A stretch of DNA of 64,000 bases from a virus: positions 8,757-72,756 of IMG/VR virus record IMGVR_UViG_3300046787_000345; one strand, given 5' to 3'. Shown in pieces: positions 16,577 to 60,412 of the stretch. The notes beneath the pieces are model-generated. The model was not told the DNA's origin, searched no databases, and saw nothing but the letters and a program-made list of their open reading frames with translations. A program made the translations under genes and the position numbers. Each line of letters begins with the position of its first letter. The stretch's first letter is position 1.

Positions 16577-16577
16577 A

Positions 16578-17724: not shown

Positions 17725-18989
17725 TACAATTTCTTAATTTCAGGTAATTTAAGAGCAATATGTTCAGTTGTCTTTACATATTTACCAAAAATTTTACCCA
17801 TTTCTTCAGTCATTTTATTTAATGAAAAGTTATTCTTTATATTAGAACTCAATCCTTTGGATGATTCTAAGTGTTTTGAATAATTTTTAAATACGTCTAA
17901 TAGTTTTTGTGCTGCATTTGAATAATTGACAGTGAACCATTTTGATTCTTTTAATAAAAACTGATTTGATGCAGATGCATGTACGGGTGTAAGTTCACCA
18001 TCTAATAAAATTGTATTCTCTTTAGGTAAAAAATCAACATGACCACTCCAATTACTAACTAAAATAGGTTTACCAGTACAAGCAAATTCTGCAAGTGGTC
18101 TACCATATCCTTCACCTTTGGTAAATGAAATCATAGTTTTTACTTTTGGATGATGATATAATGATGATAATTCTTCAGCTGTCATATCTCCAAATAATAA
18201 ATATATTGGTGGACACTGATTACCATATTCAGTTGTTAATTCTTTAATTTTATTTGCTATAGATTCTCTATCCATTACACTAAATCCTGCAGTTGATGTT
18301 TTTAAAATCAAACCAGGTTGTTTATCTTTTGGAGTATTTTTGAAAATAGTACAAAATGTTTTGATTAACATCCCCACATCTTTTCTATCTTGTCCTAAAT
18401 CACCTGATAACCAGTGTCCTACGAATAAAAAGTTAAATTCACTTTCAATATTTTCTAATACATCTTTTGATGTTTGGTGAGATTTAGTGAATACATCAAT
18501 ATCAACACCTTCGAAAAGAACTTCAATAGGTTTAACAATTGAAATATCTCTAATTTTTTGATTAGTTCTTTTATCTACCTCTGAAAATGTTGTTGATTTT
18601 AATACTTCTTTTGTGAAATTGGATGGTACTAAAACTAAATCCATTCGATTACACCCATCGATAAAATCTTTCGGTGCGATTGTAGTTTCAACTCCGGCAG
18701 TTACACCGATGTTGTACTTACCTAATGTTTGGAATTCATTTGCAACTGTTACTTGAACATATACATCTGGTTGTCTATCCAAATGAGTTACAACATTATC
18801 CAATATTCGTTGTCCGAATTCAGTTGTGATATCCAATTGGTTTTGTGGGGTAGTTCCCCAACGTGTTGGTATAATTTTCACATCGTACTTATCCAATTGA
18901 AAAATACTATGTAACAAATCTCTAGCGTGGTCGCCATATCCAGAACGTGTTGCTACAGGTCCTTGAAATACTAATAATGGTTTACTCAT
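17724..18989 (-). CDS. GT4 (GT-B) glycosyltransferase
   Basis: SGYG, KGEGYGRPLAE..CTGKP; likely start MSKPLLV at 18989. Confidence 0.88.
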   Translation of the reverse strand: MSKPLLVFQGPVATRSGYGDHARDLLHSIFQLDKYDVKIIPTRWGTTPQNQLDITTEFGQRILDNVVTHLDRQPDVYVQVTVANEFQTLGKYNIGVTAGVETTIAPKDFIDGCNRMDLVLVPSNFTKEVLKSTTFSEVDKRTNQKIRDISIVKPIEVLFEGVDIDVFTKSHQTSKDVLENIESEFNFLFVGHWLSGDLGQDRKDVGMLIKTFCTIFKNTPKDKQPGLILKTSTAGFSVMDRESIANKIKELTTEYGNQCPPIYLLFGDMTAEELSSLYHHPKVKTMISFTKGEGYGRPLAEFACTGKPILVSNWSGHVDFLPKENTILLDGELTPVHASASNQFLLKESKWFTVNYSNAAQKLLDVFKNYSKHLESSKGLSSNIKNNFSLNKMTEEMGKIFGKYVKTTEHIALKLPEIKKL

Positions 18990-19254
18990 TGCGTAATCTT
19001 TTTCGTTGTTCTTCTTGCTTGATACATCTTTCGATTGACATCTCAACCAATTTTGTAATATTTTGTAATGTGGTTGGTTGGTGTGGTGAATTAAACATTT
19101 CAAACTTTACGTTTTCAACTTCACTATCACCCAACACAAATATATAATAATCATCTGCTAGACCAGGAGTTTTATATATACTCTCTCTAGCTCTTTCTAT
19201 TCTTTCTTGTTCCCACATACCGGGAAGTCTTATTATGAATATAGGTTTACTCAT
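18982..19254 (-). CDS. Hypothetical protein
   Basis: ORF; likely start MSKPIFII at 19254. Confidence 0.55.
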   Translation of the reverse strand: MSKPIFIIRLPGMWEQERIERARESIYKTPGLADDYYIFVLGDSEVENVKFEMFNSPHQPTTLQNITKLVEMSIERCIKQEEQRKRLRNE

Positions 19255-19255
19255 A

Positions 19256-19681
19256 TTATTTACCTGTTGAACCAAATCCACCAGTTCCTCTTTCAGTAGT
19301 TGATAACTCATCTACTTCAGTCAATTCTATAATAGGATGTGGAATAATCATAATCTGACAAACTCGTTCTCCTACTTTGTAAGATATAGAATCCAATCCA
19401 TTTGATTTATTAAAAGTTGCTTGCAATTCTCCTCGATAACCCGAATCAATTACTCCTACCGAATTACTTAATGTAAGTTCCGTATTTCTGATTGATGAAC
19501 GAGGGAATACTAATCCAACAAATCCTTCAGGTATTTCCAATGCAATACCCAATCCATATGTTATTTGAAAAGTAGTATTTGAAATGATTGATGTTGCCAC
19601 CAAATCCAATCCTGCATCACTTTCCTTTGCGTACGCTGGGATTATTGCGTTAGGATGTACTCTTTTTATTTTTACTTTCAT
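19256..19681 (-). CDS. dut: Trimeric dUTPase
   Basis: AGLDL, PRSS, GVIDSGYRGE, RGTGGFGSTG. Confidence 0.96.
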   Translation of the reverse strand: MKVKIKRVHPNAIIPAYAKESDAGLDLVATSIISNTTFQITYGLGIALEIPEGFVGLVFPRSSIRNTELTLSNSVGVIDSGYRGELQATFNKSNGLDSISYKVGERVCQIMIIPHPIIELTEVDELSTTERGTGGFGSTGK

Positions 19682-19682
19682 T

Positions 19683-21077
19683 TTATGCTATTTTATATAG
19701 ATTATATCTATCTTTTGGTTTCCAATTTTGTAATGCAGTTTCCATACCATCAATCAATGTTTTACACATATATTTGGTATTTAAACCATCTTCTTTAATC
19801 ATCCAATTTCTACCTACCAATCCTCTTTGTTTACGTTCTTCTTTCGGAATATCATACCAATATCGAAGAACTTCTGCAACTTCATAGATATCTACTTTGT
19901 CATCGATAATATATGGAGTTGGGACTGAACCCACTAATGTTTGAACTTTACTAAATACTGGTTTAACCCATTCACCATGTTTAAGTTTATCACCCCACTC
20001 TCTAACATCATGCAATGAACCAATCTTTACATAATCTTCAGCAGTTAATTCTTTACCATCTAATGTAAATCCACACTGGTCTTGCAATCCACCCGTTACG
20101 TTTACAATGATTGGAGTTCCGGCCATAACTGATTCTGCAGTTACTAAACCAAATCCTTCATTACCTGCAATGTTAATTGTGATATCAGATAAATTGTATA
20201 GATAATTTAATTCTTGTTGTGAAATACGTGATTGTGAAAATCTAACATCGTAATCTGGACAAATGGTTTCTTTTACTGCGAATAAATCAGTTCCGTTTTG
20301 GTCAATTGGTGCTGTATGCATCAATAGTAAAACTTTACTCCTATCTTCTTCAGGTAACCCATCAACAAAACGTTTGTATGCCCAAATTACATCAGATGGT
20401 TGTTTACGTCTGATATTACGATTCATCCAAAATAAAACGAATTTGTAATCCTTATCACCTAAAATTGCTTTACGGAATTCTGCAGGTACTTCAGTTGGTT
20501 TGTATTTTTGAGGGTCAATACCATGCGGTACATAACTTACTTGCCAATCTTCTAATGGTTTAAACGTAACCTTATCATCGCGTTGACCTACTCTTTTTAC
20601 AATACCATAGGTTTGTTTAGAAATACATCCTAACCAATCACATGATTCATAATAATCTCTATTATATTGTGGGTCTGGTAAATCATCCCAAATATGGTAA
20701 AAGAAAATAGGAACATTTTGTCTAACTTCTGCTTCCATTTCGTATAACCATCTCCAATAACGAGGGTCAGTAAAATGTAGAATTGCATCAGGTTGATGTC
20801 TCATAATTAATTCACGTAAAATATTTGCATCACCATATCCACTATATGGAATGATTTTTACTGATGCATCTTCAATACCTGATATTTTTCTAGCATCTTC
20901 ACCCAAATCGATTTCTTTACCACTTTCTGGATGTTCTACTGCTGCACCTAATTGTACCCAATCGTATTTGTCTAACGTACCAAAAATAAGGTCTTTGGAT
21001 ACTGTTGCTATACCAGATGACATTCTAAAATCATCTGATAGTAAAAGAATTTTCTTTTTCTTTCTTTGTTCTGCCAT
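19683..21077 (-). CDS. GT4 (GT-B) glycosyltransferase
   Basis: VPHG, NRNIRRK, EGFGL..AES..AGTP. Confidence 0.9.
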   Translation of the reverse strand: MAEQRKKKKILLLSDDFRMSSGIATVSKDLIFGTLDKYDWVQLGAAVEHPESGKEIDLGEDARKISGIEDASVKIIPYSGYGDANILRELIMRHQPDAILHFTDPRYWRWLYEMEAEVRQNVPIFFYHIWDDLPDPQYNRDYYESCDWLGCISKQTYGIVKRVGQRDDKVTFKPLEDWQVSYVPHGIDPQKYKPTEVPAEFRKAILGDKDYKFVLFWMNRNIRRKQPSDVIWAYKRFVDGLPEEDRSKVLLLMHTAPIDQNGTDLFAVKETICPDYDVRFSQSRISQQELNYLYNLSDITINIAGNEGFGLVTAESVMAGTPIIVNVTGGLQDQCGFTLDGKELTAEDYVKIGSLHDVREWGDKLKHGEWVKPVFSKVQTLVGSVPTPYIIDDKVDIYEVAEVLRYWYDIPKEERKQRGLVGRNWMIKEDGLNTKYMCKTLIDGMETALQNWKPKDRYNLYKIA

Positions 21078-23517: not shown

Positions 23518-23549
23518 CAAATATACGAATAATATTCCATATTACCAAA
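23518..23549 (-). promoter_or_regulatory. Bacteroidota-type sigma promoter
   Basis: TTTG-N20-TATATTTG. Confidence 0.8.
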
Positions 23550-23557
23550 TTTATTTA

Positions 23558-24100
23558 CTATATATTCAATAATTTTAATATATCTTCAACTGTCTTATCC
23601 CCCACATCCACAATATCATACGAAATGTTGTATTTTATTAGTGAATTTTCAATCTCAGCATCCAATATCTTAGATTCTTCTAATGATTGATATCGTTCCT
23701 TCTCATTATACCCACCTTCCGTTCGATTTAACACTATATTTAGGGAATCATACTGATTATGGATATCTAATACCATTCTATCAAAAGACTCTCCATATAA
23801 GGTTGCTGGGTACTCTAATCCTTTATATACTGAACGATATACTAAGGATAGTAGGATTGGTGAATCTAATATTATATAATCTACCTTACCAAAACTTTTA
23901 ACAATCCCTCTATGTTGATTTGCTAACACATATAATTGGTCTTTAATAGCCGAGTGGTTTTCATCCCATGCAAGTTGTTTTGGAAACTCATATGGATTGT
24001 CACACGTTATATGTTTCTTTTTAAGTTTATAGGTAAGACCGGAGGCAATTGAGGATTTACCTATACCCGGTCCACCAAATAGATTTATTATTTTACTCAT
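23558..24100 (-). CDS. P-loop nucleotide kinase-like ATPase (AAA_28/NadR-type)
   Basis: IINLFGGPGIGKS, ILDSP; likely start ATG 24100 coupled to the upstream stop. Confidence 0.75.
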   Translation of the reverse strand: MSKIINLFGGPGIGKSSIASGLTYKLKKKHITCDNPYEFPKQLAWDENHSAIKDQLYVLANQHRGIVKSFGKVDYIILDSPILLSLVYRSVYKGLEYPATLYGESFDRMVLDIHNQYDSLNIVLNRTEGGYNEKERYQSLEESKILDAEIENSLIKYNISYDIVDVGDKTVEDILKLLNI

Positions 24101-25047
24101 TATAGGATTCCGTTGATACCAATTAAAGTTGCCATAAAACAAATTTCTTTATCTACCACCAAAGCATCTCTATGTTGCCCTTGTGATAATTCTAAGATAA
24201 CTGCGGATGTATTACCTGCTGCATATTCATCTACTTTTTCATAAAGATATGTGTATAATTCCGTAAAATCTTGTACACGAGAATCTGCAACAGCTTGTCT
24301 TAAATTTACATAACGATTTCGTTTATCGTCTTTTGATTTAAGAATATCTACAATCTTAACTTTAACATCAGAATCTAATATAGAACCAGTATCAACTTTT
24401 AATACACCCTTAGATGAATTTAATTGACAAGTATTGATAATTTTACGAATATCAGGATACGATGCATCTACAATAGGAACTATTTCTTTTGGTTCAAATT
24501 GTACTTTTTCAGCATTCAATATTTTACTGATTTGAATTGCAACATCTCGTTTTGTAGGTGGTACTATTTGAAATGTTTGACAACGTGATTGAATTGGGTC
24601 AATTACTTTCTCAACATAATTACAAGTCAAAATAAAACGACAATGTTTTGAAAAAGTTTCCATTAAGTTACGCAAGATTGCCTGTGCATTTGGAGTCATA
24701 TAATCAAACTCATCCAAAATGATAATCTTAGTATCTTTAAATCCAATAGTAGAAGCAAAAGATTTCACCTTATTACGGACAGTATCTACGTTATTTTCAT
24801 CAGATGCATTGATAATCATAAAATCACAATTAATTGAATTTACAATCAACTTTGCTAATGTAGTTTTACCAGTACCTGCTTTACCGAATAGTAATAGATG
24901 GGGTACATCTCCGGTACTGATATAATCACCAATCTTTTGTTTTAAATGGTCATTACCAACATAATCTTCCAATTTTTTTGGTCGATACTTTTCAACCCAT
25001 AATGTATTATTGGTTTCTTCTCGTGTTACTTCTTCAAAAAACGCCAT
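24100..25047 (-). CDS. Clamp loader ATPase subunit (RFC / T4 gp44-like)
   Basis: WVEKYRP, GKAGTGKT, INASD, ILDEFD, SRC. Confidence 0.95.
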   Translation of the reverse strand: MAFFEEVTREETNNTLWVEKYRPKKLEDYVGNDHLKQKIGDYISTGDVPHLLLFGKAGTGKTTLAKLIVNSINCDFMIINASDENNVDTVRNKVKSFASTIGFKDTKIIILDEFDYMTPNAQAILRNLMETFSKHCRFILTCNYVEKVIDPIQSRCQTFQIVPPTKRDVAIQISKILNAEKVQFEPKEIVPIVDASYPDIRKIINTCQLNSSKGVLKVDTGSILDSDVKVKIVDILKSKDDKRNRYVNLRQAVADSRVQDFTELYTYLYEKVDEYAAGNTSAVILELSQGQHRDALVVDKEICFMATLIGINGIL

Positions 25048-25072: not shown

Positions 25073-26695
<1,623 letters not shown>

Positions 26696-26798: not shown

Positions 26799-29700
26799 TT
26801 ATCTACCAAATGTATATCTAATACCTAATTGTGCACTCCATACATCAAATACTGATGAGTTGTACTGATAGGTATCTCTAGCTAAGATAGTAGAACCATC
26901 AGTTAATCTTTGAGTTGCTAATCTATATGATGGAACATTGTTTGCATCTCTACTTACAAAGTTCAACAATTGAGGAGCAGTTGCTCTTTGAGAAACACCG
27001 AATTGGTTATCAACTAAGTTACCAAAGTTTAAGATATCTGCTCTGATTTGGAATGAATTTCTCTTTCCACCAATCTTAACAAAGATATCTTGTGCTACTG
27101 ATAAATCAAATCTATGTAAGTAAGGTAACAAACCACCATTTCTTTCAGCGTATTGACCTCTACGAGTTTTTAAGTAATCATCTTGGTCAATGAACTTATC
27201 AAATGCTGCTTGTTGTTCAGCTTCGGTATAAGTTCTTCCACCTGCAGTTAATGGTACGAATCTAATATCTGAACCTTTATTTGGAACGAAGATTAAATCG
27301 TTATTGTTTACTCTATCACCATTTAAATCACCTGCTGCAATATAAGAGAATGGATTACCTTGTTGTCCTACATATCCTAATGTAAATGTAGTTGCTCCAC
27401 CATAGTTTCCGCCATATTCAATTCTATAACCTAATAAACCTACGAATCTATTCTTAACAAACGCATCTGCAAATGATAATCCTAAATCGTTATTACCATT
27501 AACTGATAATGCTGATTGCCAACTACCACTAGCGATTGAACCTGCACTCATATAATCTTTTGAGTTAGCAGTTGTCCAAGCGATTGAACCCCAAAATCCT
27601 TTTTGAACTGGTTTTTCTAATTTTAATGTCAATGATTCGTGGAATGCACCATCTCTATTCGTAAGAACTGCTGCTCTACTTACATTGTTATTTACTCTTA
27701 CAGTTGCATCACTTCCACCGAAACGAGGTCTATTATCTACACCACCCAAAGTTCCAACAGGATTTCTTAGGTTAGCTTCGTAGTAATGAACTGCGTTAAG
27801 TGTTTGATTGTAAAGATATTCAGCACTTGCTATCAATCCGAAGAATGGTAACTTTTGGTCTACTGCCAAATTAGTTTTCCATACCTGTGGGAATTTATAG
27901 TTAGGGTCTGTCAATGCTAAATCAAATGTAGATGGTAAAGTTGGAGTTGATGGGATAAAGTATTTGTTAGGGTCAGCAGTAAATCCATATTGTGCTGCTG
28001 CTGCACCACTTACATCAATAAATCCTGTCAACACCCCATTGTTACCAATTTGGTTAGATAAGAATACATAAGGAGGTCTACCCGTGAATACACCAGTACC
28101 ACCTCTAAATTGTGTTTTGCTTTCACCTTTTAAATTATAGTTGAAACCAACACGTGGTTCAAATAAAACTTGTGTTTTTGGCATTAAACCAGTATTCCAT
28201 TTTTCTCCATTTGCAAATGTCATTGCAGATACTGCTTTGTTTTCTAACGCAGTATTATCAAATCCAATAATGTTTGCTCTAACACCAAACGTTAATTTCA
28301 AATCTTCAGTTGCATCATACTCATCTTGTAAGTATAAATCTAATCTATTTGACCTTAAAGTTTGTAATGGTTCAATTGCTCCTGGTAATGCCGAATAACG
28401 GAATTGGAAACGAGCAGGTGCGAATGTAGACGGTCTACCACCATTTGCTAATGATTGATTAGCTGCAGTATAAAAATCATTCAAACTATTGAAGATATAA
28501 ACACCATTTGATGCAGGGAAGAATAAGTTATTAGATTCATAACTTTGAAAATTGAAACCACCTACTAATGTATGTTTGTTCAAATATTTTGTTAAGTTAT
28601 TTGTTACGTTAAATGTAGAATAATCTAACTTATTTCCCGGAGTGAATGGGTCAAATCCTACTGATGTTAATGTAGTAGAACCTTGTAAGATATCAATCGT
28701 TGGAAACATTTGAGACATATAACCTCTATTTTCAATTTGTTTATCATAAGAAACGATTAAGTTATTATGTAATGTATTTGAAAACTTTGAGTTTAATTCC
28801 AATACTGCTGAACGAGTATTATCCTGAATAGTATAGCCACTATTTTGGAAACTCATTGCATTGATGTTTTGTGTTCTATTACCGAAACCTGCAGATTGTG
28901 AATTTGATATACCGATTTGTGCCTCAGAATCATGATAAACGTAACGTGCAGTTAATTTATTGTTTGCATTGATATTCCAGTCAACACGAACTAAAAATTT
29001 GTTAGATGTGTTTGTGTTAGAATATCCTTCAAATGGACCGGTTTCGTAGTTGAACTTATCTTTCATAAATTTAGAAAGGTCAGTCAATTGTTGGAAAGTT
29101 GGTCTACTCACTTGTGAACCCGTTAAAGGAGAACCTGATGAAATCCAAGTTGTACCTGGTTCAGTTCTTTCGATGCCTTCGTAGTTACCAAAAATGAATA
29201 ATTTGTTCTTAATGATTGGTGCACCTAAACGGAAACCTTGCACTCTTTCATCAAATTTAGATGGAGTAATAGTTGTTCCTCTTGCGTTATTACCAATGTA
29301 AGTAGAACTATTATTTCGTTGTGTTGTATATACCGAACCTTCAACTTCGTTTGTACCACTTCTCGTTACTGCGTTGATACCTGCTCCGGTGAAACCAGAT
29401 TGACGAATATCAAAAGGTGCAATATTAACTTGTAATTGGTCAATCGCATCTAATGAAATAGCACTTGCTCCAGTTCTACCACCCGCTTGTGCAGATGAAC
29501 CTAAACCGAAGTTGTTATTAAATTGAGAACCATCGATTGTGAAGTTATTCAAACGAGAATCTTGTGCTCCAAATGAGTTACCATTACCGAATGGATTGTA
29601 TTTTGTAATACCATCGATAGTTCTAGCACCCACAATTGGGATAGTTTGTAATTCTCTACGAGAAAATTGTTGAGATGCACCGGTTCTTTCTCTTGAAATA

Positions 29701-30074
29701 ATATTATTTCTTCCGGCTGTTACAACTACCTCTGATAATGTAGTTGTTCCATCAACTAAAATGAAATTAACGTTTGTAGTAATACCCAATTGAGTATTTA
29801 CATCTTTAATTTCATCTTTTTTGTACCCTACATAAGTAGCGTGTAATACATATGGTCCACCTACTCTTGTTGCAGGTAGTACATAAGTACCATTTTTGTT
29901 GGTTACAGTGTTGTACTGCGTACCTGTCGGTGTATGTACTGCGTGAATCGTAGCACCTACCAACACTTCATTTTTCTCGTTCTTCACAACACCAGAAATT
30001 GAGGAAGTAGTAATCTGACTAAATCCAAAAAACGTGGTCATTGCAAAAACTAACGATAAAATCAGTTTTTTCAT
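26799..30074 (-). CDS. TonB-dependent receptor (Oar-like, carboxypeptidase-regulatory-like N-domain)
   Basis: Signal peptide; LSEVVVTA; NNFTIDG; FTGAGINAVTRSGTN plug motif; C-terminal QLGIRYTF. Confidence 0.92.
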   Translation of the reverse strand: MKKLILSLVFAMTTFFGFSQITTSSISGVVKNEKNEVLVGATIHAVHTPTGTQYNTVTNKNGTYVLPATRVGGPYVLHATYVGYKKDEIKDVNTQLGITTNVNFILVDGTTTLSEVVVTAGRNNIISRERTGASQQFSRRELQTIPIVGARTIDGITKYNPFGNGNSFGAQDSRLNNFTIDGSQFNNNFGLGSSAQAGGRTGASAISLDAIDQLQVNIAPFDIRQSGFTGAGINAVTRSGTNEVEGSVYTTQRNNSSTYIGNNARGTTITPSKFDERVQGFRLGAPIIKNKLFIFGNYEGIERTEPGTTWISSGSPLTGSQVSRPTFQQLTDLSKFMKDKFNYETGPFEGYSNTNTSNKFLVRVDWNINANNKLTARYVYHDSEAQIGISNSQSAGFGNRTQNINAMSFQNSGYTIQDNTRSAVLELNSKFSNTLHNNLIVSYDKQIENRGYMSQMFPTIDILQGSTTLTSVGFDPFTPGNKLDYSTFNVTNNLTKYLNKHTLVGGFNFQSYESNNLFFPASNGVYIFNSLNDFYTAANQSLANGGRPSTFAPARFQFRYSALPGAIEPLQTLRSNRLDLYLQDEYDATEDLKLTFGVRANIIGFDNTALENKAVSAMTFANGEKWNTGLMPKTQVLFEPRVGFNYNLKGESKTQFRGGTGVFTGRPPYVFLSNQIGNNGVLTGFIDVSGAAAAQYGFTADPNKYFIPSTPTLPSTFDLALTDPNYKFPQVWKTNLAVDQKLPFFGLIASAEYLYNQTLNAVHYYEANLRNPVGTLGGVDNRPRFGGSDATVRVNNNVSRAAVLTNRDGAFHESLTLKLEKPVQKGFWGSIAWTTANSKDYMSAGSIASGSWQSALSVNGNNDLGLSFADAFVKNRFVGLLGYRIEYGGNYGGATTFTLGYVGQQGNPFSYIAAGDLNGDRVNNNDLIFVPNKGSDIRFVPLTAGGRTYTEAEQQAAFDKFIDQDDYLKTRRGQYAERNGGLLPYLHRFDLSVAQDIFVKIGGKRNSFQIRADILNFGNLVDNQFGVSQRATAPQLLNFVSRDANNVPSYRLATQRLTDGSTILARDTYQYNSSVFDVWSAQLGIRYTFGR

Positions 30075-34224: not shown

Positions 34225-36732
34225 TTAAAATGAGAAGAATTTCTCTGCTGTTTTTTGTTCACTCATCACTTCACCCCAATCTAAGGCGTTATAAAAATCT
34301 TGTAATTTACCCTTTAATTCGGCTTCGAAGATTCTATTATGGTCTATGTAGGTTGAAATGAATTTTGTTATTTCTTCGGGGTCATCATAACCTGTAAACC
34401 CTAACCCATCGATTCCTAATGGATTGTTTTTAAGATATACCCATTTAATTTTATCACCATCTTTCATAGGTGAATATTTGAATGGTGCATTGAAATGTTT
34501 CAAACAATCATTATATAGAATTGCTGCTTTAACGTGAGCAGGAACACCTTTCTCCATTTGGAAAAGTTGTCTTTTCTTTGGTAGATATTTTGATAAGTTT
34601 TTTACTGCAGAGTTTTTAGCAATTTCAGTAATTGGTCTATCTACCATACTCTTTTTAAATGCGAGAACAAATGCTGTAATTTCTTCTTCTGGTTTACTTC
34701 GTAGGATATCAATTAAGACAGTTCCCATACACTCCTGAAATGCTTTTGGAAATGATGAACGTTTAACGTCTAATCCCTTAACATCTAATTTATCTACCGC
34801 AATACCATTGTTTGATATAATCCATTGAGCATAACGTTTCTTTGCAATCCAAATACCTGCTCTAGCAACGTATTCCTTTTTAATTTCCAATCGGTGTTTT
34901 TGAACGTTAAATAGTTTATCAGAAAGTATATCATAGAATTTATTCAGATAATCTTGCATTTCACCTGCAATACCATCCACCAATTGAGCAACTTCACTAT
35001 CTGGCATTTCTTTCCAATTTGGATGACGAAAATCTAAAAGTGGAACTGCTGAAAAGAATACTGAATCCGTATCGATATAAATGTTTGAATCTACATCGGT
35101 TGTACCTAACTCTTTATTGTATTTGATGTTCCCCATATTCGCCGAGTTTTTAATAACCGTCTGACCAGTAGTCGTAACCGCCTCAGCATTATCAACATCA
35201 TAAAACCGAAAGGCAGGAAGACCAAGCACACCATAAAGAGAGTTAAGTAAGATTTTTTGAACCAACTGTCTTTTTCCGTAAAAGGCATATTTTTCTTTAT
35301 CACCCTCCTGACCGTACTTCTTTTCCAATTTTCTAAATTCAACCCTTTCATTGAACCATATGTCTAATATTTCTGGAATACATCCTATTTTATCTTTACG
35401 ATATAACACACCATTTGATGATATAGTTAAATCTGCTTCTTTAATATATTTTTCTAAGTTATCACGTGAAATTCTATCATCACCCATTTGGTAATAATCA
35501 ACTTCTTTTTTCATAAATGTTTGAACATCCCAATCCGAAATCTTAGCAACCTTAGTTTCTGGACTAATGTTCAAAGTCATAATGATTGATGGATATAGTG
35601 ATGTTAAATCCAAATCATATACCCAGTCATATTTACCCACAATTGGGTCTTTTACATATGCACCGATAAACTTCTCCTCACCTGCTTCAGCCATAGCTGC
35701 GAGTTTCTCTTTTCTATCTGCAGGTTTATTTGGTGCAACCAATCCTTTACGTTTAAGGAAACATAGTAATGCACCCTCCAAATATTTCGATGAATAAACG
35801 AAATCTTCATATGGAACGTGACCTGCATGACAGATACCTCTACATAAATCAATGAATTGTAATTTCTTATCTAATTCTACAACAATCTCAACGTCCACTA
35901 AGTTATACTCAATGAACTTTTCAATATCTTCGTTAAATAAATCATCCAATGAACCTTGATACTCAATCTTACCTTTACCCAATTCAATTGTACCAATGGT
36001 ATCCAAACGATAGTTAGGTAATTCGTTGTAGTTAAATTTCTTATAAAGAGAAAGGTAATCTAAACAACTTACTCCAGCCAAAAACCATCTTTGACGATAT
36101 GGTGAATAGAATGCTTGACCGATAGGTGATAATCTTTTTGCTTGGGATTCGCCTAAGATTCGTTTCATTCTATTGAATAGATAGGGAATATCGAAATTAT
36201 CAATGTTCCAACCTGTTAAAATATCTGGTGCAATTCCTTCGTATAACTCTAAGAACTTCATACACATATCTCTCTCATCTCTGAAAGGGATTACGATTGC
36301 CTTATCGGTTTTACGTTCAACCATTTGACCTTTCTTATCCATCACCAATACCCAATATTGATTGGTTACACTATCTTGTAAACCAATCGCAGTAAGTTCG
36401 TTCTCTGCCTTTTCAGTATCAGGTAATCCACTCTCCATCTCCACCTCAATATCGAAAGTCATTGTTACAATACCTTCGGATGGGATATCAGAATCGACAT
36501 AAGTATCCACTAACACACGAGTTGTTTCTGGTACATCTGATTCGAATAAATTCGGGTCATCATTTTTGAATTTGTAAATTTTGGTTAATCGGTCACCATA
36601 GATGGAACGTGCTTCACCTCTCTCTGCCCTTTCATACGCATAACGTGTGTATGGGAATGTTCTATAACCTAAATGGGAATCCCATAAATGTATTAGGTTT
36701 CTTTCTCTCTGATAGTATATATTCTTGTAAAT
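34225..36732 (-). CDS. Family B DNA polymerase (probable ATT start at 36732)
   Basis: Exo FDIE; DLTSLYPS; K..LNSLYG; YIDTDS; KKRY. Frame is open 72 codons upstream of the GTG at 36516. Confidence 0.95.
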   Translation of the reverse strand: MYKNIYYQRERNLIHLWDSHLGYRTFPYTRYAYERAERGEARSIYGDRLTKIYKFKNDDPNLFESDVPETTRVLVDTYVDSDIPSEGIVTMTFDIEVEMESGLPDTEKAENELTAIGLQDSVTNQYWVLVMDKKGQMVERKTDKAIVIPFRDERDMCMKFLELYEGIAPDILTGWNIDNFDIPYLFNRMKRILGESQAKRLSPIGQAFYSPYRQRWFLAGVSCLDYLSLYKKFNYNELPNYRLDTIGTIELGKGKIEYQGSLDDLFNEDIEKFIEYNLVDVEIVVELDKKLQFIDLCRGICHAGHVPYEDFVYSSKYLEGALLCFLKRKGLVAPNKPADRKEKLAAMAEAGEEKFIGAYVKDPIVGKYDWVYDLDLTSLYPSIIMTLNISPETKVAKISDWDVQTFMKKEVDYYQMGDDRISRDNLEKYIKEADLTISSNGVLYRKDKIGCIPEILDIWFNERVEFRKLEKKYGQEGDKEKYAFYGKRQLVQKILLNSLYGVLGLPAFRFYDVDNAEAVTTTGQTVIKNSANMGNIKYNKELGTTDVDSNIYIDTDSVFFSAVPLLDFRHPNWKEMPDSEVAQLVDGIAGEMQDYLNKFYDILSDKLFNVQKHRLEIKKEYVARAGIWIAKKRYAQWIISNNGIAVDKLDVKGLDVKRSSFPKAFQECMGTVLIDILRSKPEEEITAFVLAFKKSMVDRPITEIAKNSAVKNLSKYLPKKRQLFQMEKGVPAHVKAAILYNDCLKHFNAPFKYSPMKDGDKIKWVYLKNNPLGIDGLGFTGYDDPEEITKFISTYIDHNRIFEAELKGKLQDFYNALDWGEVMSEQKTAEKFFSF

Positions 36733-36759: not shown

Positions 36760-36791
36760 CAAATATACGAAATAATTTCCGTATTTCCAAA
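36760..36791 (-). promoter_or_regulatory. Bacteroidota-type sigma promoter for polB
   Basis: TTTG-N20-TATATTTG. Confidence 0.8.
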
Positions 36792-36799
36792 AGTTTTTC

Positions 36800-37639
36800 T
36801 TAAAACTTATAAATTCCACCAATATTCCAGAACAAAATAGTTCCTTCAATTTGGTCTATATTCTCTTCTAACCATTTCCATTGTTTTATATCCCAAAATT
36901 GGTTACAAGGGAATGGTGCTTCATATCCATCCAAACGATTTTCGAATAGATACTCTGATTTTCGTATGTTTAACGGAATTGGTATTCCACTCTTTTTTAG
37001 AGTTTTTTTGATTGAACTTTCAGATGATACACATGTTGTCCAAATCTTTCTACTAACCGATGGGAAAAACTCTTTAAGTTCTTCTCTATAATATCCTCTA
37101 GCCAAACCAGATAAAGTTACTCCACTACCTGATGATACTACTAAATTATCAAAATGTACGAATGGTTGAATTCTTTCTGCAAGATAATCTTTATAAAAAT
37201 CGTGGTCAAAAGCGTAAGGTAACATTTGCCAACCATTTTCTCTTGCCTGACCTCTAAGTGAGTTGTACATAATCTGCATCATATTAGGTCTGATTGGATT
37301 CAAATGTACTTTTGGATACATTTCCTTAATCATTCCTAAATACTCTTGTGATATCTTTTTAGAATCAGGATGTGAAACATAAAATTCTATATCCAATTCT
37401 TCACATATTGCTGCAAGTGCCCAACCTGTCCAACTTCCATCTACTGAAAGGTGGGTTAATGGTTTAGATTTATCAATATATTTTTTAACCAATTCATATA
37501 ATGCTGCTACTTTTCCCCACGGCGGTAAAAGTGTACCATCACCCATAAGGTCATCTCTTTTTACCCAAACTTCTCTACCTTTAATATGATAAAGTTCTAA
37601 TGGAGTATCTTCATTTAAACCTTTTAATTTTAAATCCAT
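36800..37639 (-). CDS. PLP-dependent enzyme, fold type II (ACC deaminase/D-cysteine desulfhydrase-like)
   Basis: TPL...VWVKRDDL.G....GK (PLP lysine); SSGSGVT phosphate loop; LFWNIGG. Confidence 0.75.
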   Translation of the reverse strand: MDLKLKGLNEDTPLELYHIKGREVWVKRDDLMGDGTLLPPWGKVAALYELVKKYIDKSKPLTHLSVDGSWTGWALAAICEELDIEFYVSHPDSKKISQEYLGMIKEMYPKVHLNPIRPNMMQIMYNSLRGQARENGWQMLPYAFDHDFYKDYLAERIQPFVHFDNLVVSSGSGVTLSGLARGYYREELKEFFPSVSRKIWTTCVSSESSIKKTLKKSGIPIPLNIRKSEYLFENRLDGYEAPFPCNQFWDIKQWKWLEENIDQIEGTILFWNIGGIYKF

Positions 37640-39135
37640 TTATACAACCCTCCTGCGTTTGATATCAACTCACCTTTCATACTTCTATGTGAGAATCCAT
37701 AAATTTTTTCAAAATTATCCCCAATCACATTAATCATCTTCTTTCTATTTTTGAAATTGATGATAGGGTCATTTAAAATAATATCTTCAATATATTGTTT
37801 AAAGTTTGTACCTTTTTGAAATGCTCTTTTCTCTTGGTCTAATATTTCATCAGGTAACTTACCTCTAAATGCATTTGCTAATGGTAGTTTCCATTGGTTT
37901 CCTTTTGCCAAGTATTCATCAGTAAGATTTGTGGTATAGTTTAAAAATTCTCTATCAAAGAATGGACATCTTAATTCGATTGTACCATAATTCATAAAGA
38001 TATTGTTACCTCTTAATAAATTACCATAGTATTGTTTTTCAAATAATTTTTTACGAACATCACTCCAATCTGGTTTCTTACTGAACATACGGAAAGTTCC
38101 ATATGAACCATATGATTCATCACTACCCTCACCACTAAATGCTACTTTGATACCATCCTTTGCCATTTCTTCGGCAATAAAGGATTGTAAAATACCCACT
38201 TCCATTTGAACAGTTGATGGGTATTCGATTACTTTAATTGAATCTATAAATCTTTGTTTAATTATTTCCTCATCACGAGGTACGAATACTTCTATCAATT
38301 CTACACCTAAATATTTGGCACATACTCTTGCTTTTTGTAAATCCTTAGATTCTTGGTCAAATGCAATTGTATACGCTTTTAGATTGGGAATTCTTTGTGA
38401 TAGTAAATATGTAATAACTGCCGAATCAATCCCTCCACTTAATGATGTGGCAATTGGAACATCTGAAAGTAGACGTTTGTCAACTGCACTTTCTAATAAC
38501 TTAAAAGTAGTTTCAGCAACTTCATCATGTGAATTAACTTCAGTAGGTTCGGATGCAAACTGAAAATAGTAATTTTCGTTTACTACAATTGTATCAGTAT
38601 CCAAATCAATCTCAACTAATGAGTTTTTTGGTACAAATTTTATATCAGATGTTTTATGTTGGGTAACAATTGATTTTATTTCACTTGCAATAATATATTT
38701 GTTTGTGTTGTAAATATACAATGGCAACTTACCCACCCAATCGCGTGATACTAATAATTTGTTATTATCAAAAATAACAAACGAAAACATACCCTCAAGT
38801 CGTTTCAGTTCATTTTCTTTATATAAGAATAGGATAATTTCTGAATCGGAGTTCGATTTAAATGTATACCCTCGTTCTTCATATTCTTTACGAAGTTGTG
38901 GGTAATTCCATATCTCACCATTTACTACTAATTCTACACCATCATATTCCATAGGTTGATTACCCAAAGGAGATGTATCGTTAATAGATAAACGATTATG
39001 TCCTAAAATGATATGCTTATCTCCATACTTAAATTCTTTGATACCGCGGTTATCTCTACCACGATGTTCAATTGCTTCAAGCATATCGTTCACATCTTCT
39101 TTATTATACCCTATGGTTGCTACGATTCCACACAT
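37630..39135 (-). CDS. Asparagine synthetase B-like glutamine amidotransferase
   Basis: MCGI Ntn-Cys; HRG.D; NGEIWN; SLSGGIDS; SGEGSDE; R.PF.D. Confidence 0.92.
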   Translation of the reverse strand: MCGIVATIGYNKEDVNDMLEAIEHRGRDNRGIKEFKYGDKHIILGHNRLSINDTSPLGNQPMEYDGVELVVNGEIWNYPQLRKEYEERGYTFKSNSDSEIILFLYKENELKRLEGMFSFVIFDNNKLLVSRDWVGKLPLYIYNTNKYIIASEIKSIVTQHKTSDIKFVPKNSLVEIDLDTDTIVVNENYYFQFASEPTEVNSHDEVAETTFKLLESAVDKRLLSDVPIATSLSGGIDSAVITYLLSQRIPNLKAYTIAFDQESKDLQKARVCAKYLGVELIEVFVPRDEEIIKQRFIDSIKVIEYPSTVQMEVGILQSFIAEEMAKDGIKVAFSGEGSDESYGSYGTFRMFSKKPDWSDVRKKLFEKQYYGNLLRGNNIFMNYGTIELRCPFFDREFLNYTTNLTDEYLAKGNQWKLPLANAFRGKLPDEILDQEKRAFQKGTNFKQYIEDIILNDPIINFKNRKKMINVIGDNFEKIYGFSHRSMKGELISNAGGLYKWI

Positions 39136-39136
39136 A

Positions 39137-39835
39137 TTATTTATTTAATACTTCTAATAACTTATGAGTTTTTTTTGTTTCATCATTCATTTTACCGATA
39201 TGACAAGAACATGCTAGAACTGATACTTTTTCTAATTCCATATCACTTTCTTTAGCTAAGAATTTACCCATCTCAACTAATGCAGTATAATCTGCATAAC
39301 CTGATTTAGATACTCTATTTGAACGAATAATTGATGTCAGATAAATTTTACCATTACGAGGTTTGATATCAATTGCTAACATACAAGGTTGTGAATATGG
39401 ATTTCTTGCATCTCTGCTTGGGTCAAAGATAATTAATTCACATCTCTTAACTGCTTTACCAGTCTTTAAGATTTTAATTACATTTTCTACCTGATTGAAT
39501 GTTCCTTGCCATGCAACCATTCTACCCCAATATGAATCACTCCATTTATCTTTAATAAATTTATATTCCAATCCTTCTTCTGCTGCAAAGAATGGACTAT
39601 CTGAAACGTGTGGTTGTGGTTCTAAAAATGTTACTGTCTTTGCATAATCAATTCTATCATCACCCATAATTTCTCTAAAATGTGGGTCAAACCAATCATC
39701 AGATTCAAACTTTGTGATTTCAGTCATCACATTTAGTTCTTCGGTTAAATCACCTACTTTTACTCCATTTGCAATAAGGTGTTTAGATACCTTTACCCAT
39801 GCATCGCCGGGGGATGTTGCTTCTATTACTGTCAT
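39137..39835 (-). CDS. Divergent thymidylate synthase / dCMP hydroxymethylase homolog
   Basis: Y.GR...NQ..VI..LK, DP, PC catalytic Cys, RSN, H near the C-terminus. Confidence 0.75.
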   Translation of the reverse strand: MTVIEATSPGDAWVKVSKHLIANGVKVGDLTEELNVMTEITKFESDDWFDPHFREIMGDDRIDYAKTVTFLEPQPHVSDSPFFAAEEGLEYKFIKDKWSDSYWGRMVAWQGTFNQVENVIKILKTGKAVKRCELIIFDPSRDARNPYSQPCMLAIDIKPRNGKIYLTSIIRSNRVSKSGYADYTALVEMGKFLAKESDMELEKVSVLACSCHIGKMNDETKKTHKLLEVLNK

Positions 39836-39846
39836 ATGTGTTTATT

Positions 39847-41079
39847 TTATAATTTACGCCAGACCCATACAGGTTCACCAAACGTTTTATCTTTTGCTTC
39901 TTCGTTCTTTTTCAATTCCTCTTCGGAATATCTTTCTTCATCACCATCTATAATCATCCCTGCCCCTGCAGAACCCGGTCTTTTAGCCATTTCCATACCC
40001 AAACACCCCTCGTAGTGTGCACCGTCTAGAGTGGAAATAAAATCGTTCATAGGATTAGTGATTTCTTGTTGACCTTTACCATCACCTTTCGATGATGCAT
40101 ACACATCGGCAATGTTTATAGCCAAATATCCACCTTTAGCGATAGTAGGCCAAACATTAGCGATTGTCTTATGTAAAAAGTTTTTATTCCAATCATCAAT
40201 TGTTTTATATCTAATCCAACTTTGAGTGTCATCATATGAATAACGTTCTACGTTAAAATAAGGTGGTGAACTGAATACAATATCGAAGTATTCTTTATAT
40301 TCACTCAAATCCAAATCTTCTGCTGGAGATTCATAGAATGTTGATTTCTTTTCCGTTTCGAAGAACCCATTGTTCTTCTCATAGAAATCTGCTTGTTGTC
40401 TATAAATTGGATGATTTTCTTTACGAGGGTCAATACCTACATAATGCTCACCATGCTCGGATGCATAAAATCCACATAATCTATCACCCCATCCTGCTGA
40501 AATATCTAATACGTTTTTTGCTTCTACAAAATCGTATAATACTTTAGCAACGTTTGGTTTAAATTGTGAACAAATGTATTTTCGTAGGGATAGACACGTT
40601 CGTAAAGTATTCTTACTAACCTCATCGAATTTTAATGTATACATTCCACCCATAAGGGAGAACATAAAATCTGGATTATTCCAAGTACGATAAGGACCAG
40701 GTGAAACTGTGCCATCAACACTCCATCTATTTGCTTGTTGGAAATAGTTTGATGCTGGATTACCTGTATTTATTCTACGAACAAATTGTTGTTTTCCTTG
40801 AAATGTTAGTGGGTATTTGGATTCGGTTGCTTTTCGAGGCACCCATTCTCCTTCAGTAAATAATTCATGCCAACGAAATCCTTTTAGTTTAAGGTATTCT
40901 TTTCTGGCTTCTTCTTCAGTAATATCTGCATATGGAATTTCGTATGTTGCTGCTACTTTTGCTAAAGATTCTTTTACATCTTCTCTATCAAAAGTTCTTT
41001 TAATATACTCCCATTCTTCATTACCGATAAAGAGATATGGTGTCATACCATAAAACTTATCAAAATATTCTAAATACAT
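39847..41079 (-). CDS. DNA amino-methyltransferase (N4-C/N6-A type)
   Basis: LDISAGWGDR, FSSPPYF; paralog of 31798..33435. Confidence 0.8.
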   Translation of the reverse strand: MYLEYFDKFYGMTPYLFIGNEEWEYIKRTFDREDVKESLAKVAATYEIPYADITEEEARKEYLKLKGFRWHELFTEGEWVPRKATESKYPLTFQGKQQFVRRINTGNPASNYFQQANRWSVDGTVSPGPYRTWNNPDFMFSLMGGMYTLKFDEVSKNTLRTCLSLRKYICSQFKPNVAKVLYDFVEAKNVLDISAGWGDRLCGFYASEHGEHYVGIDPRKENHPIYRQQADFYEKNNGFFETEKKSTFYESPAEDLDLSEYKEYFDIVFSSPPYFNVERYSYDDTQSWIRYKTIDDWNKNFLHKTIANVWPTIAKGGYLAINIADVYASSKGDGKGQQEITNPMNDFISTLDGAHYEGCLGMEMAKRPGSAGAGMIIDGDEERYSEEELKKNEEAKDKTFGEPVWVWRKL

Positions 41080-41103
41080 AACCTTTTATTCTTTTATATT
41101 TTA

Positions 41104-41135
41104 CAAAGATACGAAAAATATTTCGTATTTCCAAA
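41104..41135 (-). promoter_or_regulatory. Bacteroidota-type sigma promoter heading the modification operon
   Basis: TTTG-N20-TATCTTTG. Confidence 0.8.
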
Positions 41136-41321
41136 TTAAATGTGTGTCCAAGTGTGACGTTTTACGATTTCCTCAACATTCCATTTACTAACTTTAAAGT
41201 TTCTAGCGATAACGTTAGTAGAGAACCCTTGTTTAAAGAGTTCTCTAATTATCCTAACTTGTTCGTTTGTAAGTTTTGCTTTCGGATGATTTTCACCACA
41301 CCTTTTATTTGATACACTCAT
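41136..41321 (-). CDS. Small HTH protein resembling the C-terminal DNA-binding tail of HNH homing endonucleases
   Basis: GENHPKAKLT...V..IR, IARNFKVS..V..I...W.H. Confidence 0.65.
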   Translation of the reverse strand: MSVSNKRCGENHPKAKLTNEQVRIIRELFKQGFSTNVIARNFKVSKWNVEEIVKRHTWTHI

Positions 41322-51236: not shown

Positions 51237-51698
51237 TTATTTTGCCCATTTTCCATTGGAAACGATTTGGGCTATAATTCCATATACTGAAAGGTCTTGA
51301 AATGTATCTTCTAAGGATTCACCAACTAAATCTTCTTTGTTTAAAACTACTAATTGTTTCAAACGTTGGATTTTATCGTTTACTCTGAACCAAAGACCTG
51401 TTAGTGATAATTTCTTATCATCTTCAGTTTCTAAGGATGTACCCACTGCAATGTTTCCTGGTCCATAATTGGATTGTTTCATGCAGAATAATTCATATTG
51501 AGTAAACATAATACGTTTAAACTCATCAGTCATTTCTGGATATTGTTTTTCGATTTCTTCTACGAGTTTGGGATTATCGTATTTGATGAACGCAACCTCA
51601 TCATCGTTTTGTTCGATTTTAGGTGCGATATTAAGTTCTAACTTATTCTTGCTCTCCTGTTTAATGATACGAGGAGTTTGTGTTGTGCTCTTTGACAT
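51237..51698 (-). CDS. Nucleotide modification associated domain 1 (Nmad1/DUF1599-like) protein
   Basis: K..NYG, R..DK..R, E...DT..DL..Y pattern. Confidence 0.8.
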   Translation of the reverse strand: MSKSTTQTPRIIKQESKNKLELNIAPKIEQNDDEVAFIKYDNPKLVEEIEKQYPEMTDEFKRIMFTQYELFCMKQSNYGPGNIAVGTSLETEDDKKLSLTGLWFRVNDKIQRLKQLVVLNKEDLVGESLEDTFQDLSVYGIIAQIVSNGKWAK

Positions 51699-60380: not shown

Positions 60381-60412
60381 CAAAGATACGAATTATTTTT
60401 GATATTACCAAA
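60381..60412 (-). promoter_or_regulatory. Bacteroidota-type sigma promoter (probably yields a leaderless mRNA)
   Basis: TTTG-N20-TATCTTTG ending 4 nt before ATG 60376. Confidence 0.75.

Follow-up and report, generated by a model that had tools for sequence, protein, structure and literature searches.

Four adjoining genes on the minus strand of an environmental virus sequence, IMG/VR record IMGVR_UViG_3300046787_000345, probably encode a new pathway of cytosine hypermodification, whose chemistry we infer from the protein families involved. They occupy 41079-36800 of the window, the 64,000-nucleotide stretch (positions 8,757 to 72,756 of the record) analyzed here. From the upstream end the cassette codes for an S-adenosylmethionine (SAM)-dependent, amino-methyltransferase-like protein with an SPPY motif (MT1 or P0001; 39847-41079, 410 aa), a thymidylate synthase (TS)-like protein (P0002; 39137-39835, 232 aa), an asparagine synthetase B (AsnB)-like amidotransferase/amide ligase that is glutamine-dependent by homology (P0003; 37630-39135, 501 aa), and a fold-type II pyridoxal phosphate (PLP) enzyme of the phage M6 gp52 family (P0004; 36800-37639, 279 aa). 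A paralogue of MT1, MT2 (P0005; 31798-33435, 545 aa), is encoded on the same strand. That this mobile cassette makes an undescribed hypermodified cytosine in the phage's own DNA, by the four steps proposed below, we consider an evenly balanced proposition. The case for it is that the cassette uses two families that edit side chains on DNA, a cytosine-type TS homologue, and an amino-methyltransferase-like family, all inherited jointly. The purpose would probably be anti-restriction, hiding the phage DNA from bacterial defences.

Genome context and operon layout

The source record is 72.7 kb long and estimated to be 40% complete. The window has about 32% G+C, with almost all genes on the minus strand, and its replication set is T4-like: PolB, sliding clamp, clamp loader, UvsX, a gp32-like single-stranded DNA-binding protein, a DnaB-like helicase, ribonucleotide reductase (RNR), and thioredoxin. 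Complete relatives are 221-289 kb, and G002, the one that was fully scanned, encodes a portal and a major capsid protein of the T4 type. A nucleotide search with the 4.3-kb cassette region gave no match among 50,697 phage records. Direct Pfam assignment in the window falls short for MT1, the TS-like protein, and the PLP enzyme; all four family assignments were confirmed through relatives, profile comparisons, and folds.

The cassette is positioned between RNR/thioredoxin and PolB (34225-36516, minus strand; Pfam DNA_pol_B, 125.9 bits). An earlier note on this DNA had described four tightly packed genes directly upstream of PolB, and the open reading frame (ORF) coordinates give the same picture: gaps of 11 nt (39836-39846) and 1 nt (39136), a 10-nt overlap (37630-37639), and PolB starting 283 nt downstream. 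The promoter that had been placed at 41104 is real as a motif. This 31-nt promoter-like motif, TTGGAAATACG-N10-CGTATNTTTG (also written TTGGAAATACG-N10-CGTATCTTTG), lies at 41104-41134 and ends 25 nt before the MT1 start codon. A second copy at 36760-36790 precedes PolB and marks the boundary between the cassette and PolB transcription units, and two further intergenic copies are at 23518-23548 and 60381-60411. These four matches are all on the minus strand, as against 0.01 expected from shuffles. A generic sigma-70 scan of the window found no enrichment (26 found, 28.4 expected). The motif appears to resemble the Bacteroidota promoter consensus, -33 TTTG and -7 TAnnTTTG. On this layout the four cassette genes appear to be transcribed together, as a unit with a phage promoter copy on either side. 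Within the motif is an inverted repeat (ATACGnnn...nCGTAT), and its end reads TAnnTTTG; the repeated copies may represent a class of early or middle promoters regulated through an operator.

Co-inheritance and cassette variants

A scan seeded with the AsnB-like protein found at least 64 viral loci (61-90% identity) and a scan seeded with the TS-like protein at least 76, co-occurrence being checked for 23 of the latter records. At the AsnB-seeded loci the TS-like, AsnB-like, and PLP genes keep a constant order wherever the contig permits. Among the 31 of these loci with long flanks (at least 4 kb upstream and at least 7.5 kb downstream; plus-strand ORFs only), every one has TS-like and PLP genes together with one or more methyltransferase-like (MT-like) genes, so the neighborhood survey proposed by the earlier note finds the genes to be co-conserved. 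An MT2-type gene is present at 23 of the 31 loci and an MT1-type gene at 21, MT1 being upstream, downstream, duplicated, or absent depending on the locus. A second clade encodes MT2, TS-like, AsnB-like, and PLP proteins in mutually overlapping genes amid UvdE, PhoH, GH6 hydrolase, and baseplate neighbors, none of which matches any window protein. The cassette is a mobile unit rather than a chance cluster, as its synteny across many viral contigs puts the clustering far beyond chance.

The TS-seeded records vary more in content. The PLP gene is encoded in 10 of 14 and 6 of 9 records and the 501-aa AsnB-like gene in 4 of 14 and 2 of 9. Thirteen records have the PLP gene and no 501-aa gene. Twelve of these have a one-gene gap of about 900 nt between the TS-like and PLP genes, and in G017 (locus L159) the two genes overlap directly. 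Four of the 13 were viewed: a stand-alone Asn_synthase/PP-loop protein of 303-308 aa fills the gap in three, and G017 codes for one of 280 aa after the PLP gene. One to four MT-like genes flank these stand-alone-ligase cassettes. Two records, G006 and G007, have neither PLP enzyme nor ligase and code for a TS-like protein followed by a radical-SAM protein, along with an MT-like gene; in one of the two, an 801-aa fusion protein joins the radical-SAM part to the MT-like part. The PLP gene is also missing from G008 and from G019, G021, and G023, the last three being records that end directly after the TS-like or AsnB-like gene, and one PLP-less record is an 8.6-kb fragment with the AsnB-like gene upstream of the TS-like gene.

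Since the TS-like and MT-like genes persist where ligase and PLP enzyme are swapped for a radical-SAM protein, these two form the constant core, and the ligase, PLP, and radical-SAM proteins behave like interchangeable tailoring enzymes. The amino-methyltransferase thus keeps its place in the operon as a family, the MT-like proteins being a constant partner. MT1 itself does not, as it is a lineage-specific paralogue and the cassettes of other clades carry the MT2 form. In a 375-kb phage (G015, L157:1390-8587) a tandem of three MT-like paralogues precedes the cassette and a fourth follows it, which would fit several sequence specificities for one modification. At one of the 64 loci (L032:7350-9482) residues 1-218 of the TS-like protein are fused in frame to residues 14-501 of the AsnB-like protein, removing Cys2; this could be a real ammonia-dependent fusion or a deletion or assembly artefact.

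The survey bears on a simpler explanation, in which the four are ordinary, independent genes of an early nucleotide-metabolism region: a plain deoxycytidine monophosphate (dCMP) hydroxymethylase or hydroxylase, N4-cytosine or N6-adenine methyltransferases, an asparagine-making auxiliary metabolic gene, and a PLP enzyme for free amino acids. RNR, thioredoxin, and PolB are encoded in the same region, consistent with this explanation. However, the four genes move jointly into unrelated contexts with overlapping frames, and in close relatives a PP-loop protein of about 300 aa without a glutaminase domain stands at the position of the 501-aa enzyme. Taken with the properties of the individual proteins described below, ordinary independent genes seem improbable.

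The TS-like enzyme

The TS-like protein scores 20.1 bits against Pfam TS (PF00303), below the cut-off of 24.3, which its cassette orthologues exceed (27.9 bits at L157, 26.0 at L136, 29.9 at L137, and 28.7 at L135). The NCBIfam model thy_syn_methano gave 66.7 bits, also below its cut-off. Searching the ESM Atlas with P0002 returned TS-family clusters only, and a large protein search found only close relatives, labelled 'thymidylate synthase' by one source. All four complete relatives also encode a canonical ThyA as a separate gene (300-316 bits), so ordinary thymidylate synthesis in the phage is not the role of the TS-like gene. The canonical ThyA of these relatives is long: the open frame is 308 aa in G003 and 374-386 aa in the other three, and the alignment shows about 40 inserted residues following the catalytic-Cys region of the G002 ThyA (L084:9256-10362).

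Pro150-Cys151 and Arg171-Ser172 of the TS-like protein, whose ThyA counterparts are Cys146 and Arg166-Ser167, are invariant in 20 sequences and in eight representatives from all clades, and His212 is retained in the alignment. Asp182 is also invariant. It aligns with Asn177 of ThyA and with an Asp in the homologues from nattely and ATCCB, the nearest among phage isolates (23-26% identity). The equivalent of position 169 is Arg (Arg174 in P0002) in six of the eight representatives and Ala in two, never Asp or Asn, and is Asp in the G002 ThyA and in the nattely and ATCCB homologues. Ser148 is found at the Leu143 position in ThyA numbering, and an invariant SKSGY motif is the family's own mark in the eight representatives. 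About 20 residues around the Glu58 helix seem to be absent, in an alignment that is unreliable at such distance. In ThyA a Tyr contacts the deoxyribose 3'-OH; its position is Gly214 in the TS-like protein.

According to a 2026 paper (PMC13326640), replacement of Asn177 by Asp is a cytosine signature, the Leu143 position is Asp or Glu in hydroxymethylases, Asp169 contacts folate and is the mark of folate-dependent enzymes, and Asn169 marks the 5-hydroxy-dCMP synthases, which depend on flavin mononucleotide (FMN) and O2. The earlier note had taken the TS homologue for one that makes C5-modified pyrimidine nucleotides, probably of cytosine. The cytosine type is borne out by the invariant Asp182 at the Asn177 position. 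The homologue is not of the classical folate type, position 169 being Arg or Ala. Because these residues replace both the folate-type Asp and the Asn of the 5-hydroxy-dCMP synthases, the family appears to be an active-site class apart from either type, and its chemistry is probably new. A site with neither the Asp169 of hydroxymethylases nor the Asn169 of hydroxylases argues against an ordinary nucleotide-metabolism gene, although the nattely and ATCCB homologues adjoin beta-glucosyltransferases, as hydroxymethylases do.

Compared with the PDB, the family profile had as its best solved structure MilA, a cytidine monophosphate (CMP) hydroxymethylase of an antibiotic pathway (E 1.2e-6), and it also matched 9iqc, a 'thymidylate synthase' (E 9e-5) that, as a guess from its Asn at position 169, is a 5-hydroxy-dCMP synthase. 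The MilA match and the Gly214 substitution would both fit a product other than genomic DNA: RNA (e.g. tRNA), or a free modified cytidine nucleotide or nucleoside serving as a MilA-type nucleoside-antibiotic precursor or as a decoy for host immune signalling. The tRNA m2G enzymes Trm11 and TrmN among the near folds of the MT-like proteins point the same way. Yet the characterised relatives of the PLP enzyme and of the ligase act on DNA, MT-like relatives exceed the cut-off of the DNA methylase family PF01555, and in several clades the cassette is directly beside PolB or replication genes. The cassette is also restricted to phage contigs in a prokaryote scan with two short peptide patterns. A product outside genomic DNA is thus highly improbable in our judgment.

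The AsnB-like ligase

The AsnB-like protein matches Pfam Asn_synthase with 147.6 bits and GATase_7 with 107.1 bits. It begins with MCGI (Cys2) and has the PP-loop SLSGGIDS and the motif FSGEGSDES; the nucleophile, the PP-loop, and SGEGSDE are invariant in 23 sequences. Its score against TIGR01536, 294.7 bits, is above the cut-off of 267.1, as an asparagine-making gene would be, whereas its score against the AsnB model NF006949 is far under the cut-off (258 vs 499 bits).

The best match in a phage isolate is gp124 of Streptomyces phage TurkishDelight (31.5% identity, E 2e-55; hhalign probability 100, E 1.3e-53), which is flanked by the C5-cytosine methyltransferase gp123 and the CmoA-like gp125, near ParB-like genes. 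The family profile matches SpCmoY with a probability of 95.7 and E. coli AsnB (1ct9) with E 4.1e-40. The TurkishDelight arrangement is the one reported in PMC12783734 for the glutamine-dependent ligase cluster of CmoA/CmoX/CmoY; the same source has the stand-alone ligase CmoY forming an amide by joining glycine to 5-carboxymethylcytosine in DNA. The AsnB-like enzyme appears closest to the glutamine-dependent ligases found beside CmoX/CmoA and, by homology, may act on a carboxylate in DNA. The amidotransferase of the earlier note is therefore upheld in its intact Cys2, its PP-loop, and its CmoX-associated nearest relatives; it is not a universal part of the cassette, a stand-alone PP-loop ligase or a radical-SAM protein being encoded instead in some records.

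The PLP enzyme

The PLP enzyme has 22.4 bits against Pfam PALP, below the cut-off of 35, and matches phrog_7093 (E 4.7e-24). Its model, built with 21 homologues (pLDDT 91.0), has as Foldseek matches a D-cysteine desulfhydrase (E 5.3e-11, TM 0.70) and a homologue of 1-aminocyclopropane-1-carboxylate deaminase (TM 0.72). The nearest isolate relatives are in 62 phages of Pseudomonas, Bordetella, and similar hosts, the match in M6 being gp52 (YP_001294560). Aligned by hhalign, the family and M6 gp52 correspond over 255 columns (probability 99.7, E 3.5e-26), from residues 10-278 against 4-277 of 278, and have in common the C-terminal motif PFxCNxF(W/Y)DxKxWxWL...FWNIG. Across 21 sequences there is no variation at Lys43, the probable PLP lysine, or in a GSGVT loop, and Lys43 aligns with the lysine region of gp52.

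According to PMC8989533, M6 gp52 decarboxylates C-alpha-glycinylthymidine in DNA, a beta-(pyrimidin-5-yl)alanine, and ViI gp226 decarboxylates O-serinylthymidine. The suggestion that the PLP enzyme tailors amino-acid adducts is strengthened by its full-length membership of the gp52 family. A scan of 185,579 prokaryote species, one genome per species, with two short peptide patterns gave no relative of the enzyme, although distant ones could escape such patterns. Both results speak against a PLP enzyme of ordinary free-amino-acid metabolism.

The methyltransferase-like proteins

MT1 has the motif I sequence LDISAGWGDR, the motif IV sequence SSPPYF (TSPPYF in MT2), and a family-specific N-terminal domain of about 170 aa. 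It matches phrog_12517 (E 1.9e-16) and phrog_498, 'DNA methyltransferase' (E 5e-4); in the Pfam search neither MT1 nor MT2 had a match. Full-length MT-like homologues score 33.5, 31.4, 33.2, and 28.6 bits against N6_N4_Mtase (PF01555; cut-off 26.7), and a homologue from a distant clade that passes this model aligns to MT1 over its full length (probability 100). Passing N6_N4_Mtase would also suit plain N4-cytosine or N6-adenine methyltransferases. MT1 and MT2 are 32% identical over 206 aa of the catalytic half (BLASTP, E 1e-25), and DxSxGWGxR and (S/T)SPPYF are invariant in 24 MT-like sequences. Together with Asp182 of the TS-like protein, the invariant SPPY counts in favor of cytosine as the target. 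In the second clade (L035-L066) MT2 orthologues with 69-73% identity are encoded directly upstream of the TS-like gene. Searching the ESM Atlas with the N-terminal part of MT2 returned unnamed viral clusters.

The MT1 model (pLDDT 88.7) has a class I methyltransferase fold. Its matches are many and near-tied (Z 13-16), with an O-methyltransferase at the top (Z 15.8) and two amine-directed tRNA enzymes, TrmN at Z 15.5 and Trm11 at Z 15.1, among the nearest. MccD is at rank 12 among the Foldseek matches, no better than many other methyltransferases. TurkishDelight gp123 and gp125 were considered as relatives of MT1 or MT2 and ruled out; they are not related, gp123 being a C5-methyltransferase and gp125 CmoA-like.

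Partner enzymes of known pathways

CmoA (TIGR00740) was found in none of five records, four of them complete, although a Bacteroides thetaiotaomicron control genome gave no signal either. Carboxymethyl transfer from carboxy-SAM (Cx-SAM) is rated less likely for the cassette because of this result. PMC12783734 likewise reports no carboxymethyltransferase of the N4/N6 type with CmoA. Using phmmer (E <= 1) with M6 gp49 and gp51-gp55 against the 327 ORFs of G002, gp52 alone found a match. Pfam scans of the window gave no member of the aGPT-Pplase or 5-hydroxymethyluracil (5-hmU) kinase families, in line with the earlier statement that no aGPT-Pplase is recognizable there. The radical-SAM protein of the variant cassettes is not similar to M6 gp53. 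At Pfam E <= 1e-5, G002 yielded neither a dCTPase nor a dCMP deaminase. A 7-deazaguanine route was discarded, as Pfam scans of the window and G002 gave no QueC/D/E or transglycosylase and a weak QueC match reflects the shared PP-loop. The earlier note did not recognize the gene combination as a characterized pathway, and in the literature we found no description of this gene set, though the supplements of three key papers might list such clusters.

Proposed pathway

In the pathway we propose, the TS-fold enzyme would use Cys151 to activate C5 of dCMP and add a group there before replication, with an active site of neither the folate nor the flavin 5-hydroxylase type. The modified nucleotide would then be phosphorylated and incorporated into DNA by the phage PolB. 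Third, the SPPY class I enzymes (MT1, MT2, and their paralogues) would flip the base in differing sequence contexts and transfer a SAM-derived group to it, either methyl or, as our preferred guess, the 3-amino-3-carboxypropyl group of SAM, since no other enzyme in any cassette version could give an alpha-amino acid and a carboxylate. Finally, the AsnB/CmoY-like enzyme would adenylate the carboxylate on DNA and convert it to a carboxamide with ammonia from glutamine, and the gp52-like PLP enzyme would act at the alpha-amino-acid end, most likely by decarboxylation. The TS-like enzyme would thus act before replication and the MT-like, ligase, and PLP enzymes after it.

Both pairs of late reactions have chemical analogies. 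In microcin C synthesis MccD/MccE transfer a SAM-derived 3-amino-3-carboxypropyl group, followed by a PLP decarboxylation, and in diphthamide synthesis transfer of the 3-amino-3-carboxypropyl group is followed by ATP-dependent amidation of the carboxylate. Unlike in the proposed pathway, these reactions take place on a peptidyl-nucleotide and on a histidine of a protein rather than on DNA, and the analogy is one of chemistry with no specific sequence relationship. A 194-aa P-loop kinase-like protein (23558-24142, minus strand; phrog_2107 'thymidylate kinase', E 3.3e-13; Pfam AAA_28) is encoded in the window and is, from its sequence, a candidate deoxynucleoside monophosphate kinase for modified dCMP.

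Several points weigh against this pathway. The MT-like fold matches many unrelated methyltransferases about equally; that a group other than methyl is transferred is a guess. The AsnB-like protein exceeds the NCBIfam asparagine-synthase cut-off (TIGR01536), as would fit an enzyme that makes asparagine. A simple amino-acid adduct has a single carboxylate, and the decarboxylase and the amide ligase would each need it. The simplest scheme must therefore be altered, whether by a second carboxylate, by two separate populations of adducts, or by a PLP reaction that is not a decarboxylation. With no dCTPase or dCMP deaminase in G002, full replacement of cytosine is not indicated. The TS-AsnB fusion at L032 has lost the AsnB Cys2 and may reflect an artefactual deletion, with no meaning as a fusion. 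Lastly, all characterized TS-fold enzymes act on mononucleotides, and some or all of the later steps could be pre-replicative too.

This last point leads to the main rival, a wholly pre-replicative route in which the TS-like, PLP, and ligase enzymes build the whole side chain on dCMP, with the MT-like enzymes limited to a later methylation of the DNA or of that side chain. The Cys-activated C5 could, for instance, attack a PLP-bound aminoacrylate, as indole does in tryptophan synthase, giving a beta-(cytosin-5-yl)alanine nucleotide that is then amidated. All characterized TS-fold enzymes act on mononucleotides according to PMC13326640, and loss of the folate-contacting Asp169, with Arg/Ala and SKSGY instead, fits a different electrophile. 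The TS-like and PLP genes are adjacent or one gene apart in every PLP-bearing clade and overlap in L159, there is one TS-AsnB fusion (L032), the cassette lies between RNR/thioredoxin and PolB, and a beta-(pyrimidin-5-yl)alanine is exactly the substrate of gp52 (PMC8989533). On the other hand, the characterized relatives of both tailoring enzymes act on DNA polymers, and PolB would need to accept a bulky zwitterionic dNTP. Such a route also leaves unexplained why the MT-like protein is the constant partner of the TS-like protein, even where a radical-SAM protein replaces the PLP enzyme and the ligase. We rate the wholly pre-replicative route as rather unlikely.

Returning to the mixed pathway, the amidated, amino-acid-derived group that the earlier note attached to cytosine fits the protein families, their residues, and their co-inheritance; the chemistry of the product and its role would follow by inference. 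The most specific form of the proposal combines a new TS-fold class (Arg/Ala169, SKSGY), aminocarboxypropyl transfer to DNA cytosine by SPPY enzymes, and interchangeable ligases, PLP, and radical-SAM enzymes in aquatic jumbo phages, and as a whole it is doubtful. If the aminocarboxypropyl reading were true, this would be the first natural DNA base of the aminocarboxypropyl type, diversified into amide- and amine-bearing cytosines. Among environmental contigs of T4-like and jumbo phages the cassette is common, with the at least 64 and at least 76 loci described above, and its swappable versions mean that a whole series of new DNA bases may exist. Bases of this kind bear on evasion of restriction and CRISPR, on sequencing bias in viromes, and on tools for site-directed functionalization of DNA.

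Other genes of the window and its relatives

Between thioredoxin and the cassette a 61-aa ORF (41136-41321, minus strand) matches only the C-terminal helix-turn-helix part of HNH/homing endonucleases (phrog_20467, E 4.7e-9) and is kept at 48-100% identity in most loci of clade 1. Either a remnant or a small regulator that binds DNA would fit. A further protein of 153 aa (51237-51698, minus strand) matches DUF1599, 'nucleotide modification associated domain 1', with 25.8 bits (cut-off 25). The window also encodes a GroEL (25073-26692, minus strand; phrog_5725, E 1.2e-178), and in the relative L135 a GroEL gene directly follows the PLP gene.

A block of sugar chemistry at 12238-21077 (minus strand) comprises an FkbM methyltransferase, Methyltransf_24, GT8, an NAD epimerase/dehydratase, GT2, and two GT4-like proteins, with a dUTPase amid them; it could glycosylate DNA, the virion, or host glycans. 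An unusual cargo for a phage is a 1091-aa protein (26799-30074, minus strand) with an outer-membrane beta-barrel (PF25183, 161 bits) and CarboxypepD_reg, arranged as in SusC/TonB-dependent receptors, a hint of a Bacteroidota host. The auxiliary chemistry of G002 is very rich: a NodU/CmcH-type carbamoyltransferase, a tryptophan-halogenase-like flavoenzyme, and two radical-SAM proteins (L084:12954-14684, L084:2344-3594, L086:18572-19987, and L087:4350-5552), together with several 2-oxoglutarate (2OG)-Fe(II) oxygenases, a sulfotransferase, and a NAMPT/NAD salvage set.

Comparison with known systems

We compared the cassette with characterized systems for modifying pyrimidines. Like the cassette, CmoA-CmoX-CmoY of Synechococcus phage S-B43 (PMC12783734) pairs a methyltransferase-fold enzyme with an ATP-dependent amide former of the asparagine-synthetase family to modify cytosine in phage DNA, and its ligase is likewise known in stand-alone and glutaminase-fused forms. 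Unlike it, the cassette has no CmoA in the five records searched, its methyltransferase-fold partner is of the SPPY amino type rather than the C5 type with SPPC and has no similarity to TurkishDelight gp123, and it adds TS-fold and PLP enzymes.

Thymidine hypermodification in M6 and ViI (PMC8989533) is similar in that a TS homologue supplies the base, a gp52-family PLP enzyme is among the tailoring enzymes, and the system is modular, with a core and swappable tailoring enzymes that include radical-SAM proteins. The TS homologue of the cassette is however of the cytosine type, and phmmer (E <= 1) found in G002 no homologue of the 5-hmU DNA kinase gp54, the aGPT-Pplases gp51 and gp55, or the radical-SAM isomerase gp53 of M6.

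The RB69/DLP3 5-hydroxy-dCMP synthases (PMC13326640) are T4-like phage TS homologues in which Asn177 is replaced by Asp and Asp169 is lost, and they make modified dCMP before replication, as proposed here for the TS-like enzyme. The Asn169 diagnostic of the RB69 gp48 type is Arg or Ala in all eight cassette representatives, which have SKSGY as a motif of their own, and the partners in the cassette are MT-like, ligase, and PLP proteins rather than arabinosyl or glycosyl transferases. T4 gp42, the dCMP hydroxymethylase, and MilA share with the TS-like enzyme the TS fold, the catalytic Cys, and an Asp at the base-specifying position, and differ in that the cassette enzyme has no Asp169 and has Ser148 at the Leu143 position.

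Known phage routes to hypermodified pyrimidines start from 5-hydroxymethyl handles, from the recently described 5-hydroxy handle, or from a carboxymethyl group taken from Cx-SAM. The cassette mixes pieces of three routes, a TS homologue, a gp52-type PLP enzyme, and a CmoY-type ligase, and lacks the installer of each, whether the kinase/aGPT-Pplase pair, the glycosyltransferase, or CmoA/CmoX. A fourth route, with at least one new TS-fold chemistry, is therefore indicated.

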